DNA of 53,563 nt from Candidatus Thorarchaeota archaeon (GCA_048882045.1 JBHLRZ010000023.1:1-53563), one strand, 5' to 3'; positions 20,974 to 30,172 are shown, counted from the first letter of the stretch. Notes: generated by a model from the letters alone, not told the origin. Numbers and translations are program-made.

Positions 20974-21276
20974 TATTAAACATTCTATAGTGGCGATAAG
21001 TAACCTTATTCATGCGGTCTATCACGCGTGTAACACTGGAAATATTCGGTGTTTGTAACCTGATTTGAACTCTTCAGAACTATCATATAGTATTATGAAA
21101 GAAATGGAGGTCTATGGTGCCTCTTTGAAACCGTGTTTTTACAAATTTACAAAATCATCATTATAAATAATTGATAGATAATCTTCTGTAATCATTTCGA
21201 GAATGCCGCGCCCACCACACTTTGCTGTTGGTTAGTATTCATTCTTGATTTGAAATGGCTAAAGTTGGTTGCAGTT

Positions 21277-23292
21277 ATGGTACAAGTTCATACAGTTATC
21301 AAAATGGGACTAGTAATCGGTCTTCTTGTATTGCTTTCAGTTCCCATCGTTGATATGTCCCAACGATCAAACAATGTAACACAAGAATTCAGTAACACGC
21401 CTTCTCCATCAGTAAATCTGGCACAAGTATATGATTCTTCAACCTTGAACTTTGTTAATATGACGAGGAACATTGATGGGAACGATGCTGTATCAATTGA
21501 GCAGATCTTTTTCCGTATTGGAACATTAAAGATTCTTGATCCCGCGTTGTCCTCACTCTCTCCATCCGAAGTAAGCTATTTGATTTCCCAAGTTCTCTCA
21601 TTTCAAAGATCTTCTGGAGGCTTTGGAAACTGGAAAGGAGATCGTAGTAGCGTTTCACCAACACACATGGCTCTACAAGTTCTTGATTGGCTAGGATACT
21701 CGGGTTTGAATAATACCGCAATAGAACAATACCTTGACAGACTACAGAACACACTAACAGATGGATTCAACTCTCACCTGCTAGATACTGATAGTGATGT
21801 CCATTCATCATATCACGCAATCAGGTCATATGAGCTAATCGGGAGTGCGCCTACAAATGTGACAGCGGTTGTTGAATATTTCAGAAGAGCTCAGAATCTG
21901 GATGGCGGCTTTGGTCTCCAAACAAATAATGAGAAGGGCATTTTTTGGACATCTCGAGCAACAGTTACGCAGGACGCACTATTAGGATTAGCAGTGTACG
22001 GCGCAGAAGCAGGTAATCCGACTGCAGCTTTGAATTTTGTTCAAGGCCTTCAGTTGATAGACTCAGGAGGCTATGTTAACCAAATTGATATCCTTAGTAC
22101 ATCTGCAAGCTACACAGCTGCAGCTTTGGATTCAATATACTATCTCAATGGAACTGCTTTGAATATCACATCTGTGACTAACTACCTGTACTCACTTGAA
22201 ACTTTGAATGGTGGATTCAGGTACAATCCAATAAGTACAGATTCTTCTCTAATTGGAACCTATTTTGCAGTCCACGCCCTTTCTATATTGGGAGAATCTC
22301 CAACAAACATTACTGCAACCATAGATTATGTGTCGCATCCTCCCATCAGTGATGGTTACGGGGGTGTACCTGGAGATTCTCCCTCCCTTAGGGAGACCTT
22401 TGATGCAGTATACACGCAAATTCTAATGGATCAGATTCCTGACAATGTTCAAGGAATCATAGATTATGTAGCATCATATAGGAATCCTGATGGTGGTTTT
22501 GGTCTTACAGGATCCTTTGTTGAGAGTACTCTTCGAGCTCTTGAAACATACGATTTACTCGGTGTTGCATTTCCCAGTCCTTCAGAAACCATTACATATC
22601 TGCAGAACCTGCAACAACCGAATGGAGGCTTTGTGAAGACTGCAGGTGATACTACTGCCTTTGTTGTATCAACCTATAGAGCTGTACGGGCTCTAGAAAT
22701 ACTTGAGGCTCTACCACTCAATGTGAATAATGCGATATCATTCTTGCAAGGAATACAAAATGGCGATGGCGGTTGGGGAGGTTTCATTGGAGACACAAGT
22801 GATGTTACGAGCACCTATCGTGCGGTTCGAGGTTTAGATATTCTTAATTCGCAACCTCTGAATCCTAACCAAGCAATTACTTTCCTCCAAAGTAGTCAGA
22901 ATGCTGATGGTGGTTTTAGAAGGAGTCAGTTCGACAATGTCCGCCCCAACAATGTTTCCCACGCAATCTACACCTACTCTGCAGTTAGGGCACTTCATAT
23001 TCTTGGAACTGCTCCACTGGATTTGATTGGCGCTCATGATTATATAACATCTCTTCAGAATTTGGATGGAGGTTATGCAGAGCATCCTGGCTTTACTTCC
23101 AACATTGCATATACCTATACCTCGGTATTTCTTCTAAGTAACTTCGACCTCTACACCCTATCTTCTAGTACAACAACGACTACAAATACCAATTTTCCTC
23201 CAGTTGGTTTACCTGATCTTCTACTGTACTTAGGAATGGGACTAGTAGTGATCGCAGTCATCACTGTTGTTCTTCTTCGTCGCCGAAAATAG
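21277..23292 (+). CDS. Exported prenyltransferase/squalene-cyclase-repeat (alpha/alpha toroid) protein with C-terminal TM anchor
   Basis: About 12 repeats of Q-N-x-D-G-G-F/W/Y...S.V.STY.A+.AL.+L; N-terminal hydrophobic signal; Ser/Thr linker, TM, RRRK. Start uncertain (21250 TTG, 21277 or 21304 ATG). Confidence 0.85.
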   Translation: MVQVHTVIKMGLVIGLLVLLSVPIVDMSQRSNNVTQEFSNTPSPSVNLAQVYDSSTLNFVNMTRNIDGNDAVSIEQIFFRIGTLKILDPALSSLSPSEVSYLISQVLSFQRSSGGFGNWKGDRSSVSPTHMALQVLDWLGYSGLNNTAIEQYLDRLQNTLTDGFNSHLLDTDSDVHSSYHAIRSYELIGSAPTNVTAVVEYFRRAQNLDGGFGLQTNNEKGIFWTSRATVTQDALLGLAVYGAEAGNPTAALNFVQGLQLIDSGGYVNQIDILSTSASYTAAALDSIYYLNGTALNITSVTNYLYSLETLNGGFRYNPISTDSSLIGTYFAVHALSILGESPTNITATIDYVSHPPISDGYGGVPGDSPSLRETFDAVYTQILMDQIPDNVQGIIDYVASYRNPDGGFGLTGSFVESTLRALETYDLLGVAFPSPSETITYLQNLQQPNGGFVKTAGDTTAFVVSTYRAVRALEILEALPLNVNNAISFLQGIQNGDGGWGGFIGDTSDVTSTYRAVRGLDILNSQPLNPNQAITFLQSSQNADGGFRRSQFDNVRPNNVSHAIYTYSAVRALHILGTAPLDLIGAHDYITSLQNLDGGYAEHPGFTSNIAYTYTSVFLLSNFDLYTLSSSTTTTTNTNFPPVGLPDLLLYLGMGLVVIAVITVVLLRRRK

Positions 23293-23303
23293 GTGTGGAA
23301 AAA

Positions 23304-26300
23304 ATGAAGAGCAATCGATGCTTCCTTGGCATTTATGTCATTCTGACGTTGCTCTTCATTTCGACATTTTCTAACAACTCTGTGACAATATCTGTATCAT
23401 CATCTCTTGATGAACCATACCTGGAGTTTGAATTTACTCCTTCACAACAATCGGTTTTCCAGAATACAACATTTAATCATGAAGTCATGTTATTCGTACA
23501 GAGGTCGCAGGATGTTGGAGATGTAGCAGTACCCTCCATGGACGTAGCATATAATTTAGGAATGTCGATTCATTATCTGACTGTATTTGGCTATCCAGCT
23601 CCAGATAACCTAGTAGCAGAGGTTCTGAATTTTATTAATTCTTCTAGGAATGAAGATGGAGGCTATGGAAATTGGAATGGAGCAAGGAGTTCAGTTGAGT
23701 CAACCTTTCAAGCACTCCAACTATTAGTCACATACAATAACCTCTCTGTCCTTTCTATAGAAAGTGTAAATCGAACCGTTGGGTTCTTAGAACAACTAAA
23801 GACATTTGACAAAGGCTACTTACCATTACCCCAGTGGGATGCTCCTGATGTTTCTTCTACATACAGAGTAATCTATGGATTAAATCGAATTAATACAGAA
23901 TTTCCCAGCATTAGTGTTCAGATCGATAATTCATCTAGTGGATTTATCAACAGTACATTTGTTCCCCCCATTTTTGTCAATGGCGCTTCCGGATTCTCTG
24001 AGAATCTAGGGGGACCGGCTGAGCTTCTGGCATCCTTGAATGCCGTCCAAGCATATCTCCTATTGAATATCACAGACACACCTTACTTCGAATCAGTTGC
24101 GAAATTCATGAATTCCCTGATTGCGACAAATGGCGGAGTGGCTGGTTACGCGGGAGGTTTGCCAACAATGGGTTTTACATCAGCTGCTATACAACTCTAC
24201 CATCTTTTCAAAACAGAAACATCATTCGCAATTGATGATTACCTTCCAAGTACTTTTCTTGAAGATGGTCTTAACTACATTCTCGCTAATAGAGAAGCAG
24301 GATCTGGATTTACAGCATCAGAGCGGGATACAACTGCAGAACTAAGGTCCTCCTTTTTTGCACTACGAATTCTTCACCTTCTTGATGAACACAGCCTTCT
24401 TTCAACGATACCTGATCTCACTGGTGTCTTTAATTATCTCGTGGAGGGAGTTCAGCCAACCTTTGGATACGCGAATTATCCCGGTGACGTTCCTGATATT
24501 TCATACACAGCTCAAGCAATACTCATTGGAAAACTCATTGGTAATAGCTCTTATGTCGGTCCAGGAGTTAGCGAATACGTTGAACGCACCTATAGTGAAA
24601 CAGGAAGAGGATTTGGTTTTAGGCCTGGATCTTCTGCTAGAGTAAAGTATACCCACTTTGGAGTCAGGGCAACTCGAAGTCTTAATGGACCGTTAACAGT
24701 CGCTCAAAATATCGTTCAGTATCTATTAGACTCCCAGAATGAGGGTGGAGGATTTGGAGAACGACCAGGTTCTACAATTAGCTACTTGACTCACACCTAT
24801 TGGGCAATTACTGCTCTCAACCTCCTAGGAAACATTCAAAGGTTTCCAATTGATCCAACCTCTGTCCTAAGCTGGTTGACTTATTTAGAAAAACCCGATG
24901 GGACCTACTCTAATTTTCCCGGTTTCAATTCAACTCTAACATCTACATATCGAGCCATGATGATTCGATTGTTACTAGACGATGATATAGATGCCAATAG
25001 CTCTCTAAAGACTACTCTTGCTGATTACCAACAGATATCTGGTGGATATGTCTCATCCTTGGATCGAACTGCTCCTTCAATGGAAGCCACGTTCTATGGT
25101 GTTGCCCTATCACTTATGCTAGACATACCTCTTAATGATACACTTCTTCTTGACTTCGTATTCTCGCTACAAAATGGAGACGGAGGTTTTGGTTTACGAC
25201 CTGGATTTTCAAGTAGAGTTGAATCTACATTTTACGCTATTCTGACTCTAAAACTGCTATATGAAAATCTGGAATCATTAGAACCCACAGACCTTAGCGA
25301 AGATCCTGAAGATTTCTACTCACCAATTATTGTACCTACGTTCATCCCAGTCATCGACAATTATCGAGTGTTTCAGAATTCCTACGTACTCTCATCGACC
25401 ATCATTGAACCTGAGAGTTCACTGGTCCATGTTTGGGTAGAAGCTGATTGGACATCTGATGAATCAGGAGATATAGTATATCTTGAGTTCGAGGGAGTTC
25501 CAAGTGAAATCTATCAAAATGAATGGATTTTCATCATGGGAACATTTGATGCTGATGGTGAATTGAGATTCAGGGTTCATGCATCAGATTCCAATGGAAA
25601 CTCAGCAGTAACCGAGTATTATTTCCTTACTTCCCTCTCAGATATTCATTCTATACCTATCCCTAGTCAGAATCTTACTGCAGCTTTACTTCCCTTCATT
25701 CTTCCAATATTCCTCATCATTGGTTCTGTTGATGGATTTTCCCTACATAGGCGAAAGAGAAACTCCGAAAGAAGTGATGTGAAAATGACCCTACAATCCA
25801 AAAGAAGAAACGAAATCTTTGGCAATGAATCACTGAATATTATCGCGTTCATCATGGTTTTTGGTACTATCGCGATACTTGCCAGATTCTTTATCCAGGA
25901 TGCGGTTCTCATTCTGGAGAACTCCATATTCCTCTTCAGATTTCTGTTGGGCATGATCGTCATTCTCGTTGGAAAGTATGTTATTGGTCTGAAAACATTG
26001 GGTCTCTTTGGCCCAACTGTCCTTGTAATATCGCTACTTGCTCTAGGTCCTTTTTGGGGGCTTCTGATTTTCCTCAATATATTCGTAGTTGGTTACGTGA
26101 TTAGGGCGCTTATCAGCCAGTTCAATTTAGCTGTTGGATTTCGAATTGGAATACTAATGATATTCACCGTTGCGTTTGTTGGTTTATTGGAATTACTTGG
26201 AGAAATCTTTCTGATTCCGATTCTTAGTGGTTCAATACTAGTACCAATCATAATCACTCCTTGGTTCATTGATAGGTATGTCATTGAGTCAGAGCAAGAA

Positions 26301-27464
26301 AGCCAGCTTATAGCCTTCCAACGCTTGTTGACGACATTAGGAATTTCCATTGTCTCATTCATTCTCATGAGTATTGATACTCTTGTTCTAATCCTAATCA
26401 GTAATCCAGAACTTTGGGTCGTTCTATCAGCAAGTGTCCTATATTTTGGACGAAACACAAAATACACAACAGTGGATAAGAAACGGTTCACTCGATTGTT
26501 CGCCAAGGGTGAGGATCCACTCTCAGTTCAAATCAGAAACCGAAATTATATTGCTAAATACAACTCGAGCATGCTATTCTCAGTAATTAACAAGTACAAT
26601 CTGAAAGATCAATTCGACAAGTGGCGAGTTCCAACTGCAGAACTCTATTCCATTATCAATAGTGAGAATCAGATTGATGATTTGATGATGCGTTTGAAAA
26701 CAGAGAAGCAATTTGAGAATGGCTTTGTTATCAAACCCTCCCAAAGTTATGGCGGAAAGGGAATCATGGTGGTAAAGAATCGGGATGAAAATGGGAATTT
26801 CCATGTTGGTTCTGAAATCTATGCTCCACGTGTAGTAGAAACGGAAATTCGTAAAATCGTCAAAGGAGAATATCTGACAAGTCAAACAAAATCCGATTAC
26901 GACATTGTCATCATAGAAGAAAAAGTGGTCAATCATCCCGATTTGGCAAAGATCTCCACTGGTCTGCCAGATGTTCGGGTCATCGTCTTTCGAGGAATCC
27001 CAGTTATGGCGATGATGCGACTCTCAACAGTTGCGAGTGATGGACTAGCAAATTTGAAACAAGGGGCAATTGGAGCTACTGTCAGAATTGCTGATGGTAG
27101 AGTGACTCGCGCTGAAATGAAGGGGATTGAGGTCAAGAATCATCCAGATACAGGTGAGCTCATTGTTGGATTTACACTTGAGAATTGGGATGAGATCTTA
27201 TCTACAGCCTGTCTAGCTCAAAAGAGTACTGGATTAGGATATGCAGGTGTAGATATTGTAATTGATGAGAACAACCGTGTTCTTGTTCTTGAGGTGAATA
27301 AACGACCTGGTCTTGAAATTCAAAATGTGAATCAAAGTAGTCTCTTGAATCGCTTTGAGTTCATAGAACAGAATAATCTAGATGCCACAGAGCTATCTCC
27401 GATTGCTGCTGCAAGGTATGGGATGAATTTGGCAAGGACAAATTGGGAACAGAGGGGTGATTGA
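23304..27464 (+). CDS. Fusion protein: exported prenyltransferase-type repeats + Ig-like domain + TM + 7TM_transglut-like domain + alpha-L-glutamate-ligase-related ATP-grasp
   Basis: Repeats such as SRNEDGGYG, SQNEGGGFG, LQNGDGGFG; 7TM signature IGLKTLGLFGPTVL; ATP-grasp motifs RNRNYIAKYN, FVIKPSQSYGGKGI, DVRVIVFRG, ANLKQGAIG, GYAGVDIV, LEVNKRPGLEIQ. Alternative GTG start at 23295. Confidence 0.88.
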   Translation: MKSNRCFLGIYVILTLLFISTFSNNSVTISVSSSLDEPYLEFEFTPSQQSVFQNTTFNHEVMLFVQRSQDVGDVAVPSMDVAYNLGMSIHYLTVFGYPAPDNLVAEVLNFINSSRNEDGGYGNWNGARSSVESTFQALQLLVTYNNLSVLSIESVNRTVGFLEQLKTFDKGYLPLPQWDAPDVSSTYRVIYGLNRINTEFPSISVQIDNSSSGFINSTFVPPIFVNGASGFSENLGGPAELLASLNAVQAYLLLNITDTPYFESVAKFMNSLIATNGGVAGYAGGLPTMGFTSAAIQLYHLFKTETSFAIDDYLPSTFLEDGLNYILANREAGSGFTASERDTTAELRSSFFALRILHLLDEHSLLSTIPDLTGVFNYLVEGVQPTFGYANYPGDVPDISYTAQAILIGKLIGNSSYVGPGVSEYVERTYSETGRGFGFRPGSSARVKYTHFGVRATRSLNGPLTVAQNIVQYLLDSQNEGGGFGERPGSTISYLTHTYWAITALNLLGNIQRFPIDPTSVLSWLTYLEKPDGTYSNFPGFNSTLTSTYRAMMIRLLLDDDIDANSSLKTTLADYQQISGGYVSSLDRTAPSMEATFYGVALSLMLDIPLNDTLLLDFVFSLQNGDGGFGLRPGFSSRVESTFYAILTLKLLYENLESLEPTDLSEDPEDFYSPIIVPTFIPVIDNYRVFQNSYVLSSTIIEPESSLVHVWVEADWTSDESGDIVYLEFEGVPSEIYQNEWIFIMGTFDADGELRFRVHASDSNGNSAVTEYYFLTSLSDIHSIPIPSQNLTAALLPFILPIFLIIGSVDGFSLHRRKRNSERSDVKMTLQSKRRNEIFGNESLNIIAFIMVFGTIAILARFFIQDAVLILENSIFLFRFLLGMIVILVGKYVIGLKTLGLFGPTVLVISLLALGPFWGLLIFLNIFVVGYVIRALISQFNLAVGFRIGILMIFTVAFVGLLELLGEIFLIPILSGSILVPIIITPWFIDRYVIESEQESQLIAFQRLLTTLGISIVSFILMSIDTLVLILISNPELWVVLSASVLYFGRNTKYTTVDKKRFTRLFAKGEDPLSVQIRNRNYIAKYNSSMLFSVINKYNLKDQFDKWRVPTAELYSIINSENQIDDLMMRLKTEKQFENGFVIKPSQSYGGKGIMVVKNRDENGNFHVGSEIYAPRVVETEIRKIVKGEYLTSQTKSDYDIVIIEEKVVNHPDLAKISTGLPDVRVIVFRGIPVMAMMRLSTVASDGLANLKQGAIGATVRIADGRVTRAEMKGIEVKNHPDTGELIVGFTLENWDEILSTACLAQKSTGLGYAGVDIVIDENNRVLVLEVNKRPGLEIQNVNQSSLLNRFEFIEQNNLDATELSPIAAARYGMNLARTNWEQRGD

Positions 27465-28616
27465 ATGGAATATACAATTGAAACAGCGGGAAGAATACGC
27501 GCTACGAAATATATTGGGGGATTTATACTCATCATCATAATGGTTGCTTCAATTGGAGTTGTCTATGGACAAGAAGTTCAAGAAACGAAGCGAGGTTCAG
27601 CTGAGTTTCGGCTAAGCTATCGATACTTCCTGAAAAACGAGGGGCCACTTGATCTTACATCGGTAACCCTTCGACTTGCTGAGTTGAAAGACTGGGAACC
27701 AATACAGAAAGTATCTAATTTCGTGATTGATACAGCTCCAAATCAGACTACAATAGATGAGTATGACAACCATTATCTTTGGTACGAATACACAGATTTC
27801 AGAATCAATCAGACTCTTGACCTCTGGTTCCATGCTAACGTTACCTTGGACTTTGTAAACTATGCAACACCTGATCTTGCAGTTCAGCCATATAATGTAG
27901 AGGATGAGCTATATCAACTGTATACAGCGTATCATCCTCTTTCTGATTATACCGATCCCAACATAAGACACATAGCCCAGCTTTTAGAAATTCCAAATGA
28001 CCCGATTGGGACCGCGTATAACCTTTACAATTTTACAGCGAACTACATTGACTATCGACTACTAAGTTCCATTCGAGGTGCAACATATGCACTAAGAAAT
28101 CATGAAGGTGACTGCGATGAATACACAACCCTCTTTGTTGCATTAGCTCGGTCATTGGGAATTCCTGCTGTAAGCCACACAGCATGGCTTGCAGAATTTG
28201 AAACTGGATTCGTTGGCACTGATGATGGAGCAATTGCCCATGCATATCCAATGTTCTTTGTTCAAGGAGTTGGCATGCTTCCAGTAGATCCAACTCGAGG
28301 CAAAGATAGCATCTTTGACAACTGGCTTAAGACTGACCACAAAAGAATCACTATGACACGTGGACCTGACAATCCATATCGACTCCTACAATACCGTTGG
28401 CTCCCAGTAGAAGGACTCTCAGATCCATCAATAATCAGCAACTACACAATAATGATTCATGAAATGAATACAGTGTACACATCGATATTAAGGAGTCTAA
28501 TAATACTCTCTTTAGTTAGTATTCCAGCAATATTCGGATTGATGAATGTCGTAGTTGGATTCAGAATTCGAAAGGAGAACAAACAGAAACTGGAACGGTT
28601 GCTTTCACCTGAATAG
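27465..28616 (+). CDS. Membrane-anchored transglutaminase-like protein with intact catalytic triad
   Basis: GDCDEYTTLFVALARSLGIPA (Cys), AHAY (His), PVDPT (Asp); N-terminal signal/anchor and C-terminal TM; ATG abuts the upstream TGA with GGGGTGA RBS. Confidence 0.9.
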   Translation: MEYTIETAGRIRATKYIGGFILIIIMVASIGVVYGQEVQETKRGSAEFRLSYRYFLKNEGPLDLTSVTLRLAELKDWEPIQKVSNFVIDTAPNQTTIDEYDNHYLWYEYTDFRINQTLDLWFHANVTLDFVNYATPDLAVQPYNVEDELYQLYTAYHPLSDYTDPNIRHIAQLLEIPNDPIGTAYNLYNFTANYIDYRLLSSIRGATYALRNHEGDCDEYTTLFVALARSLGIPAVSHTAWLAEFETGFVGTDDGAIAHAYPMFFVQGVGMLPVDPTRGKDSIFDNWLKTDHKRITMTRGPDNPYRLLQYRWLPVEGLSDPSIISNYTIMIHEMNTVYTSILRSLIILSLVSIPAIFGLMNVVVGFRIRKENKQKLERLLSPE

Positions 28617-28705
28617 AACGTTCGAAAATGATATGTTCTATAAGAGCCGAAAGCCTTTTTCCTAAAGCCTGTCGGTCCTGATTGACTTCATACGAGGATT
28701 GTAGC

Positions 28706-30172
28706 ATGATTGACCTTACAATGAATGAGTTTCAACTTGAGAGAACTGTCGAGAGATGTCGTGAACGAAACATCGTCATACCGACCTTTGAACAGATGAA
28801 GGATCCTTCCAAGACACCTGACAGAATAAAGGATGAACTGAAAGACATCGAGCTCTGGGATGTTGTCCCACAAAACCTCTTCCGAATCACTTGGAAAAAC
28901 GAACCTATTGACAAGGGCGGTCTCTTCCAACCATTAGCAAATTACATGGAGGTGCCTTCCGAACTCACTGGAGTAGAAGCCCGTATCATTGCACTAGTCG
29001 GCAAATGGTTTCCAACAGGTGCCCACAAAGTTGGTGCAGCCTTTGGATGTCTTGTTCCACCACTGGTCACTGGTCAATTTGATCCTACCTACCACAAGGC
29101 TGTGTGGCCGTCAACTGGCAACTATTGCAGGGGAGGAGCCTATGACTCTACCCTTCTCGGGTGTGATAGCGTTGCTATCCTTCCTGAAGAAATGAGTCAA
29201 GAACGATTTGACTGGCTTAAGAGTGTAGCAAGTGAAATTATCAAGACACCAGGAAGTGAGAGCAATGTCAAGGAAATCTATGATAAGGTCAATGAACTTG
29301 TGGCAACGAGAGACAATGTATTCGTCTTCAACCAGTTCAACGAGTTTGGTAATTACCTATGGCACTATGAAGTCACTGGAAAGGCGATGAGAGAAGTACT
29401 GAACAAAGAGCTCGGGAATGACACCTATCAAGGTCTCTGCCTTACGACGGGGTCTGCAGGGACTATCGGAAGTGGAGACTTCATGAAGCAAGCATACCCC
29501 CAGTCCAAGGTAGCTGCTGGCGAAGCAGTCCAGTGTCCCACACTCTGGCTCAATGGATATGGTGCTCATAGGATCGAAGGCATAGGGGACAAGCATGTAC
29601 CCTGGATCCACAACGTTAGGAATACTGATCATATCATCGCAATCGACGATAACGATTCCATGAACTTAATTCGTCTATTCAATGAGGATGCTGGAAAGAA
29701 GTATCTTGTAAATGATATCGGCGCTCCAGAACCTTTGGTCAACGACCTCTCACTGCTTGGTATTTCTAGCATCGCGAACCTTTTGATGGCAATCAAATTT
29801 GCGAAGTACTATGAACTCACAAAGAATGATGTTGTCTTGACTGTCTTTACTGACTCTATGGACATGTATCAGTCAAGAATCATGGAGGCAAGAGACGAGT
29901 TTGGAAAATATTCAGAGAAGGATGCCATCAGGGACTACCATCGACATCTCATTGCTCAAAAGACCGATGCCATGATAGAACTTGACCACTACGACAGAAA
30001 ACGAATTCATCACCTGAAGTATTTCACATGGATTGAGCAACAGGGAATGGAGCTAGATGAGCTGAATGCTCAATGGTACGACTACCCCGGATCCTGGGAA
30101 CGTGTTCAGCAGATGACTCCCAAGATTGATGATCTAATAGTGCAATTTAACGAAAAAGTTGGGTTGATCTAG
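28706..30172 (+). CDS. Fold-type II PLP-dependent enzyme (cysteine synthase / threonine synthase beta superfamily), substrate unknown
   Basis: PLP lysine motif FPTGAHKVGAA, PSTGNY, TTGSAGT, HRIEGIGDK; ATG 28706 with GAGGA upstream. Confidence 0.85.
   Translation: MIDLTMNEFQLERTVERCRERNIVIPTFEQMKDPSKTPDRIKDELKDIELWDVVPQNLFRITWKNEPIDKGGLFQPLANYMEVPSELTGVEARIIALVGKWFPTGAHKVGAAFGCLVPPLVTGQFDPTYHKAVWPSTGNYCRGGAYDSTLLGCDSVAILPEEMSQERFDWLKSVASEIIKTPGSESNVKEIYDKVNELVATRDNVFVFNQFNEFGNYLWHYEVTGKAMREVLNKELGNDTYQGLCLTTGSAGTIGSGDFMKQAYPQSKVAAGEAVQCPTLWLNGYGAHRIEGIGDKHVPWIHNVRNTDHIIAIDDNDSMNLIRLFNEDAGKKYLVNDIGAPEPLVNDLSLLGISSIANLLMAIKFAKYYELTKNDVVLTVFTDSMDMYQSRIMEARDEFGKYSEKDAIRDYHRHLIAQKTDAMIELDHYDRKRIHHLKYFTWIEQQGMELDELNAQWYDYPGSWERVQQMTPKIDDLIVQFNEKVGLI

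Follow-up and report, generated by a model that had tools for sequence, protein, structure and literature searches.

In Pseudomonas aeruginosa, rloABC encodes a secreted retropepsin (RloA), a membrane protein that joins an inactive transglutaminase (TGase) domain to a seven-transmembrane (7TM) domain (RloB), and an ATP-grasp protein (RloC) (bioRxiv 10.1101/2025.03.18.643919; PMC11957051 / PMC12239564). It was shown that the defects of cells lacking the protease are suppressed when rloB or rloC is deleted, that RloA in vitro cleaves poly-glutamate (polyE) chains from 8 residues upward, and that osmotic tolerance (hypo-osmotic and envelope stress), biofilm formation and antibiotic sensitivity are affected by the system (bioRxiv 10.1101/2025.03.18.643919). 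The suppression implies that a protease-sensitive, RloBC-dependent entity is found outside the cytoplasm. Here we describe a cassette of three genes (A, B and C) from a Candidatus Thorarchaeota archaeon, located in a stretch of 53,563 nucleotides (GCA_048882045.1 JBHLRZ010000023.1:1-53563; hereafter, the window), which appears to be an archaeal variant of this known, biochemically unsolved system; rloABC is its nearest relative, and the only one, to have been characterised. The cassette is apparently undescribed: literature searches on Asgard ATP-grasp and transglutaminase proteins surfaced only a pseudomurein paper, and searches with the family names and Pfam/TIGRFAM identifiers gave nothing relevant.

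As in rloABC, the cassette pairs a 7TM_transglut membrane domain with a cytoplasmic RimK-related ATPgrasp_ST ligase and a transglutaminase-fold domain on the outer face, all encoded in a tight operon. By homology, the C-terminal half of the B protein corresponds to the 7TM part of RloB plus RloC, and C to the RloB ectodomain, supplied in trans, while the toroids are without a counterpart in bacteria. An initial annotation of the window had proposed kinship with the bacterial 7TM_transglut and alpha-L-glutamate-ligase-like systems, and this kinship, with systems now named RloB/RloC, holds. Unlike in rloABC, ligase and membrane domain are joined here in one chain. The transglutaminase fold, a fused and inactive domain in RloB, is encoded by its own gene and keeps the Cys-His-Asp triad intact, and the cassette includes two extracellular alpha/alpha-toroid proteins and two extra transmembrane (TM) helices.

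Other systems share parts of this design. Bacterial single chains such as Thalassomonas viridans SG34_019065 and Pseudomaricurvus HBA55_31740 contain all three modules and keep the Cys and His of the TGase, but carry the modules on one polypeptide in which the TGase precedes the 7TM domain; toroids are absent, and a tetratricopeptide repeat (TPR) protein is encoded downstream. The poly-alpha-L-glutamate ligase RimK and its retropepsin antagonist RimB show the same ligase-plus-peptidase logic; RimK, which glutamylates ribosomal protein S6, is a soluble enzyme acting on that target in the cytoplasm, whereas the B ligase is fused to the membrane and its partners are all extracellular. The poly-gamma-glutamate capsule system CapBCA(E)/CapD likewise combines a membrane-coupled, ribosome-independent amide ligase with an enzyme outside the cell by which the polymer is anchored or set free, although the analogy is one of function only, CapB being Mur-ligase-like and CapD a gamma-glutamyl transpeptidase, both without homology to the cassette. 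The 7TM/ATP-grasp family itself is said to have been originally described, by comparative genomics, by Iyer et al. in 2009.

Results

Genes A (21277..23292, with an alternative TTG start at 21250), B (23304..27464, with an alternative GTG start at 23295) and C (27465..28616) are three open reading frames (ORFs) in the same orientation on the + strand. Between A and B lie 11 nt, in which an AGGTG overlapping or following the TAG stop of A (23290-92) precedes the ATG of B at 23304, while B and C are separated by 0 nt, the TGA of B (27462-64) abutting the ATG of C (27465) with GGGGTGA just upstream. Both junctions carry ribosome-binding-like sequences, and a T-rich stretch lies downstream of C. 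The tight, co-oriented packing noted in the initial annotation is in agreement with these coordinates and junction sequences, and we read A, B and C as one operon. The domain content first assigned to the three proteins also agreed with Pfam profile searches (PF00432, PF14402, PF14397 and PF01841).

The cassette was found in many other genomes. A search with the 7TM-ligase half of B returned 28 proteins with the full B architecture (1339-1509 amino acids, 50-83% identity), the named ones all coming from Asgard metagenome-assembled genomes save one record labelled 'Methanobacteriota archaeon'. Loci were compared using the ORFs of twelve fetched loci and three neighbourhoods (Heimdall, 'Odin' and another). 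The order A, B, C was held in 13/13 complete loci of other Asgard genomes, with unrelated flanks, and in each of these an A orthologue (44-69% identity) stood directly upstream of B. The three neighbourhoods likewise had a toroid protein, B and a Transglut_core protein within wholly different flanks. Strong C orthologues were limited to B-positive genomes and lay directly downstream of B wherever both share a contig. B is present in 17/400 genomes of the phylum and in 3/27 within the window's own genus. Co-occurrence of the three genes in other genomes had been set beforehand as the test by which the proposed system could fail, and the order was kept throughout. A chance juxtaposition of A, B and C was rejected on the grounds that the cassette recurs with unrelated flanks across many genomes, and comparative evidence points to A, B and C as a conserved functional unit. 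A functional linkage of the modules is also supported by a Rosetta-stone argument, because the bacterial single chains join TGase, 7TM and ATP-grasp domains.

Gene B encodes a fusion protein of 1386-1389 amino acids. Its ATP-grasp amide ligase (26535..27368), predicted to be cytoplasmic, was assigned by Pfam, motif alignment and Foldseek: the match to ATPgrasp_ST (PF14397; 3.9e-57, 194 bits against a cut-off of 31.4) extends over residues 1081-1358 and covers positions 2-277 of the 278 in the profile. The motifs KP...G.G, GL.D.R, M.R, AN..QGA.G, HPD, G.D and E.N.RPGLEIQN were invariant or at least 90% conserved in an alignment of 30 homologues (19 Asgard sequences, 10 bacterial fusions and P0032, described below) and were conserved as well in a set of 13 orthologues, bearing out the earlier proposal that the ligase motifs are intact. 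In Foldseek the model of B had RimK as its top match (7qys/5zct/4iwx), with Ddl, LysX/ArgX and cyanophycin synthetase also found, and RimK was both the best structural match and the sole sequence relative of the ligase in the PDB. The B ligase is thus a putative RimK-like ATP-dependent amide ligase.

Ahead of the ligase, B starts with a signal peptide and an ectodomain reaching to about residue 790 (23382..25664), made of toroid repeats (about residues 30-660) and a membrane-proximal beta-rich domain (about 660-790). It is followed by a hydrophobic segment, TM0 (residues 794-815; 25674..25739), identified by hydropathy and probably a relic of the C-terminal anchor of the ectodomain half, then by a basic loop (HRRKRNSERSD...KRR), hydrophobic segments up to about residue 1050, a further basic stretch and the ligase. 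The membrane domain (25827..26456), delimited by PF14402, hydropathy and the helices of an AlphaFold2 (AF2) model, comprises TM1 (about 848-866) and the 7TM_transglut core (about 878-1052). The PF14402 match covers residues 884-1068 and profile positions 63-247 (1.2e-17, 64.7 bits against a cut-off of 25), and the NCBIfam model for RloB (NF052267) matched B partially (3.3e-10). Hydropathy averaged over orthologues gave exactly seven core peaks, aligned with the seven of the bacterial homologues, and TM0 and TM1 are archaea-specific. The N-terminal fusion to an inactive transglutaminase, which is the usual PF14402 architecture, is absent in B, where toroids and the two extra TM helices are found instead.

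B is therefore predicted to have nine TM segments, with the N-terminus outside, the C-terminus inside and the basic loops in the cytoplasm. Both toroid proteins and C are predicted to face outward and the ligase inward. This topology was derived from hydropathy and positive-inside reasoning, with no dedicated topology predictor; it agrees with the ligase's need for ATP, with the periplasmic location of the RloB ectodomain, and with the outward barrels and transglutaminase and cytoplasmic ligase envisaged in the initial annotation. Conserved polar residues of the membrane core are R937, R950, E966, E970, D993 and E1039, among which R950 and E1039 are kept from bacteria to archaea. The 7TM-ligase part of B showed about 24-29% identity to the bacterial fusions when aligned and 28-32% in local BLASTP, a comparison that did not include RloB and RloC themselves. 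The AF2 model of B residues 775-1389 had a predicted local distance difference test (pLDDT) score of 81.7. A complex prediction of this part of B with full-length C scored 0.15 (mark 0.32), a result that bears neither way on binding.

The sequence of B points to a fusion of a toroid protein and a 7TM-ligase at a seam that is still visible. An internal ATG, Met831 (25785..25787), lies at the position of the start codon of a separate 7TM-ligase gene in split orthologues, and Met is found there in most of the fused orthologues aligned. In one genome (G070) the B orthologue is split into two genes, the first coding for an anchored toroid protein that ends in TM0 and KRNQRIK, and the second, a 7TM-ligase gene, starting 4 nt later with an ATG (MTVQTK) at the position of Met831. 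Four further complete split forms were found (the split forms being P0122-P0126), and since split forms nest twice within the fused clade of the tree (support 100), the fused or split state appears to have changed more than once.

Gene C encodes a bitopic membrane protein with a transglutaminase/papain-like core, laid out as an N-terminal TM helix (17-35), a beta-sandwich (42-132), the core (148-338), a C-terminal TM helix (346-364) and a basic tail. Transglut_core (PF01841) was matched at 2.7e-13, with 50.6 bits where 23 are required. The motif GDCDE, which holds Cys217 (codon 28113-28115), was invariant along with His259 (28239-28241) and Asp275 (28287-28289) across 21 Asgard-type orthologues down to 32% identity, the divergent P0120 included, so that the triad spanning 28113..28289 that was recognized at the outset is confirmed; Cys217 is the single cysteine of C. 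On account of this intact triad C is predicted to be catalytically competent. The AF2 model of C (pLDDT 86.7) had its nearest fold in a putative cysteine protease (3isr; 2e-15), followed by TgpA, TglA, TG2/TG3, LapG, PeiP and PNGase. Because these neighbours include proteases, isopeptidases and transamidases, the fold leaves the choice undecided, and C is best described as a putative protease, isopeptidase or transamidase. The possibility that C replaces the RloA protease was downgraded, since nearly all lineages have a transglutaminase fold together with the 7TM module, whether on the same chain or on a separate one; C is better matched with the ectodomain of RloB itself. A KLxxLLxP motif in the cytoplasmic tail of C (residues 373-381; 28581-28607) is conserved and often ends few residues from the C-terminus; it may touch the ligase on the inner side of the membrane, or act as a substrate for it.

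Gene A encodes a surface-anchored alpha/alpha-toroid protein of 680 amino acids, numbered from the 21250 start. Its chain opens with a signal or anchor and runs through about 11 GG[FWY] repeats and a Thr-rich stalk to a TM helix near the C-terminus (residues 657-675), after which comes RRRK. Both A (4.5e-54) and the N-terminal part of B (3.3e-32) matched the Prenyltrans repeat (PF00432), and their sequence matches in the PDB were the beta subunits of RabGGTase and FTase and SQHop_cyclase_C proteins. The two are paralogues with merely about 25% identity. A has no Cys and the B ectodomain a single one, confined to the signal peptide, while the DxDD motif of class II cyclases was found in neither. 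The toroids were accordingly rejected as prenyltransferase or class II cyclase enzymes, having neither the Zn-ligand Cys nor DxDD, and an alpha2-macroglobulin-type thioester was rejected for want of Cys. Because the catalytic residues of prenyltransferases and cyclases are lacking, the toroids of A and B are most likely binding modules. The six-hairpin clan, to which toroids of this kind are assigned, includes proteins that bind glycans and isoprenoids as well. N-glycosylation sequons are numerous in A, B and C alike, and 12/16 of those in B fall between residues 27 and 614.

Two further features of A were observed. A DTDSD sequence (D-x-D-x-D; residues 179-183, 21784-21798) and a QN..GG.G.QTN block (residues 215-226) are both invariant among A orthologues and could form a metal- or ligand-binding site of the first toroid. 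The A protein of the window is also without a small membrane-proximal beta-rich domain of about 50-100 amino acids (at residues ~636-645, 23155-23190). In most of the 11 orthologues aligned (757-837 amino acids) such a segment stands between the toroids and the Ser/Thr stalk, the first gap being filled in 11/11 and the second in 7/11, and the window copy looks like the product of a lineage-specific deletion.

The triad of toroid protein, 7TM-ligase and transglutaminase fold is, on the sequence evidence, not confined to Asgard archaea. 'Simple' triads (L036 and L039), with a toroid protein of 752-759 amino acids resembling the N-terminal part of B, a 7TM-ligase and a transglutaminase fold, form the sister group to the Asgard clade (support 97), and a further, distant triad was found at L041. 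In the phylum of a Thermoplasmata genome, PF14402 was present in 10/301 genomes, nine of which had a toroid protein (910-1004 amino acids, A-like at 33-44% identity), then a 7TM-ligase and then a transglutaminase fold, with one of the nine loci ending at a contig edge. These Thermoplasmatota triads (L041, L048-L055) have the same gene order as the cassette, but their ligase has no toroid fusion, there is one toroid gene instead of two, and Ser stands for Cys: in the partner proteins of L048-L055 Ser replaces the catalytic Cys (EGGSAE) while His and Asp are kept, in 7/7 complete sequences aligned. The partner would be a papain/transglutaminase fold that uses Ser-His-Asp, or else a domain that has lost its activity. 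The Ser substitution therefore makes thiol cross-linking no universal requirement of the triad. In the tenth PF14402-positive genome the ligase is paired with a subtilase, which takes the place of both partners (the Thermoplasmata module, L038), and P0032 is one chain of 7TM, ligase, TM helix and subtilase.

Two features that the initial annotation had taken as distinguishing the cassette proved to be widespread. A 7TM domain and a ligase in one chain is the commonest form of the family, with more than 460 clusters (540-650 amino acids, at E<=1e-30) that include Halorubrum, Natronomonas and Thermoplasmata, and it occurs also in the TGase-7TM-ATP-grasp chains of Gammaproteobacteria. An intact transglutaminase is likewise not peculiar to the cassette, as these bacterial cis fusions, a long separate branch in the tree, keep the Cys and His of the TGase invariantly and the Asp in 9/10. 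It is the toroids that are the archaeal additions to the 7TM/ATP-grasp system. The ligase clade as a whole is found fused to or beside peptidases (MATCAP, retropepsin and subtilase).

Several of the related loci had features of their own. A divergent cassette lies at a Heimdall-family locus (L013; G077:C445), where a gene for an anchored toroid protein is found with one for a 7TM-ligase that is not fused (35% identity) and with a C-like gene (29%); according to the genome search, the C-like gene contains one in-frame TAG. In the tree, the L013 ligase falls in the Thermoplasmata/haloarchaeal branch and outside the main Asgard clade, which hints at transfer between phyla. Bacterial proteins P0057-P0087, P0072 and P0079 have ATPgrasp_ST fused to MATCAP (tubulin tyrosine carboxypeptidase-like, PF08014) or to a retropepsin (PF05618), and are likely to combine a ligase and an antagonist peptidase in one chain. 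In Thalassomonas (L020) a divergent two-component system lies upstream of the TGase-7TM-ATP-grasp gene, and downstream come a TPR protein of 642 aa and then one of 378 aa without known family (L020:8439-10367). In the window, the gene downstream of the cassette (28682-30172) codes for a 496-aa pyridoxal phosphate (PLP)-dependent, cysteine-synthase-like protein with a long N-terminal extension, scoring far under the equivalog cut-offs. It was rejected as a member of the cassette, being conserved in none of the other loci.

Discussion

We favour, tentatively and with somewhat less than even confidence, a reading in which the cassette comprises a cytoplasmic peptide ligase whose product passes the membrane and is processed outside the cell. 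The ligase would make an acidic peptide of short length, with oligo- or poly-glutamate the likeliest, either free or on a carrier, and the membrane domain would pass or present this product to the outside, by way of its 7TM core or along the side of it. C would then cleave or transfer the product by acyl-enzyme chemistry, while the toroids would hold the product or its acceptor at the surface. Peptide chemistry for the ligase is favoured, by analogy, by the pairing of the same clade with peptidases and by the cleavage of polyE by RloA. The chemistry put forward in the initial annotation, in which a tag made inside would be exported and cross-linked outside, is one of several readings that would fit the data.

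Several observations weigh against this proposal. TIGR02291 matched B at 217.6 bits, under the equivalog cut-off of 314.2, so that the ligase is best regarded as related to the alpha-L-glutamate ligase-like protein of that model, whose equivalog name is not warranted. Transport of the product by the 7TM domain is an assumption made by analogy, and in Foldseek the B model had matches only to its ligase part and none to the membrane domain. The likening to Rlo is itself an analogy, yet the cassette lacks two features that define membership of rloABC; no match to the RloA retropepsin family (PF05618) was found in the host genome (3.6 Mb, 93% complete), which leaves the analogy incomplete, and none was seen at the three inspected Asgard cassette neighbourhoods. 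In the Halorubrum relatives both partners, the toroid and the transglutaminase fold, are missing. Finally, a classical transglutaminase requires Gln donors, not Glu, and the Ser of the Thermoplasmatota triads and the inactive domain of RloB may mean that the partner acts mainly by binding. Given that variant and that inactive domain, caution is needed before thiol chemistry is made central.

A further reading, which we consider unlikely, is that of a surface-polymer machine. The ligase would polymerise an acidic peptide and thread it out through its own 7TM domain, and the papain/transglutaminase-fold enzyme would graft it by transpeptidation onto surface glycoproteins held by the toroids. If true, Asgard archaea and Thermoplasmatota would modify their cell surface covalently in a way not seen before, and the bacterial Rlo system would gain the biochemical function that it has so far lacked.

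It could also be proposed, in line with the receptor alternative of the initial annotation, that the cassette serves in trans-membrane signalling, the ectodomains sensing a ligand and the 7TM domain relaying the signal to the ATP-grasp enzyme, which would modify a cytoplasmic target with nothing being exported. An extracellular domain, a 7TM domain and a cytoplasmic enzyme do make up a receptor-like architecture, in which the ectodomain is swapped among lineages (inactive TGase, active TGase, toroid or none) and the partner tolerates loss of its Cys, and the epistasis in Rlo would also fit a protease that removes an activating ligand. Nevertheless, the polar residues, prolines and glycines kept in the membrane core from bacteria to archaea are no less easily explained by a path for the substrate, hydrolases outside the cytoplasm turn up again and again as partners of the family, and the polyE specificity of RloA suggests that the ligase product itself gets outside; signalling thus seems to us improbable.

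Quite improbable, in our view, is that the cassette modifies an envelope precursor, with the ATP-grasp enzyme amidating a carboxylate of a lipid-linked glycan or other precursor at the inner leaflet, the 7TM domain handling the isoprenoid carrier, and the toroids and C acting outside on a glycan or glycoprotein. Such a role would have to be reconciled with partners that are peptidase folds across lineages, with a nearest solved relative, RimK, that is a peptide ligase, and with the finding that neither a glycosyltransferase nor a flippase gene is a constant neighbour of the cassette, whose flanks differ in every genome compared. It would nonetheless accord with the family name of PF14397 ('sugar-transfer associated'), with the glycan and isoprenoid binders of the toroid clan, with the many N-glycosylation sequons on A, B and C, and with nucleotide-sugar genes near some relatives (L039 and L037). 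That C serves chiefly to support or gate the membrane domain, as the in-trans counterpart of the inactive RloB domain, with a dispensable triad and the essential chemistry done by the ligase alone, would suit both the presence of a transglutaminase fold with the 7TM domain in nearly all lineages, active or not, and a conserved cytoplasmic tail motif suggestive of contact with B, but is very unlikely given a Cys-His-Asp triad and GDCDE motif invariant in 21/21 Asgard-type orthologues, a nucleophile that is the sole cysteine of the protein, and a Thermoplasmatota variant that keeps His, Asp and a possible Ser nucleophile.

The envelopes of Asgard archaea are little understood, as is the ligase product of the bacterial Rlo system. 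The archaeal cassettes amount to natural experiments on Rlo, in which the ligase and 7TM domain are fused or split, the transglutaminase fold is supplied in cis or in trans, the nucleophile is Cys, Ser or neither, and the partner is a toroid protein, a subtilase or a retropepsin. From such variants it can be seen which parts form a unit, and they give several ways of finding the ligase product. Direct coupling of an ATP-dependent ligase to enzymes outside the cell would provide archaea with a new route of surface modification.

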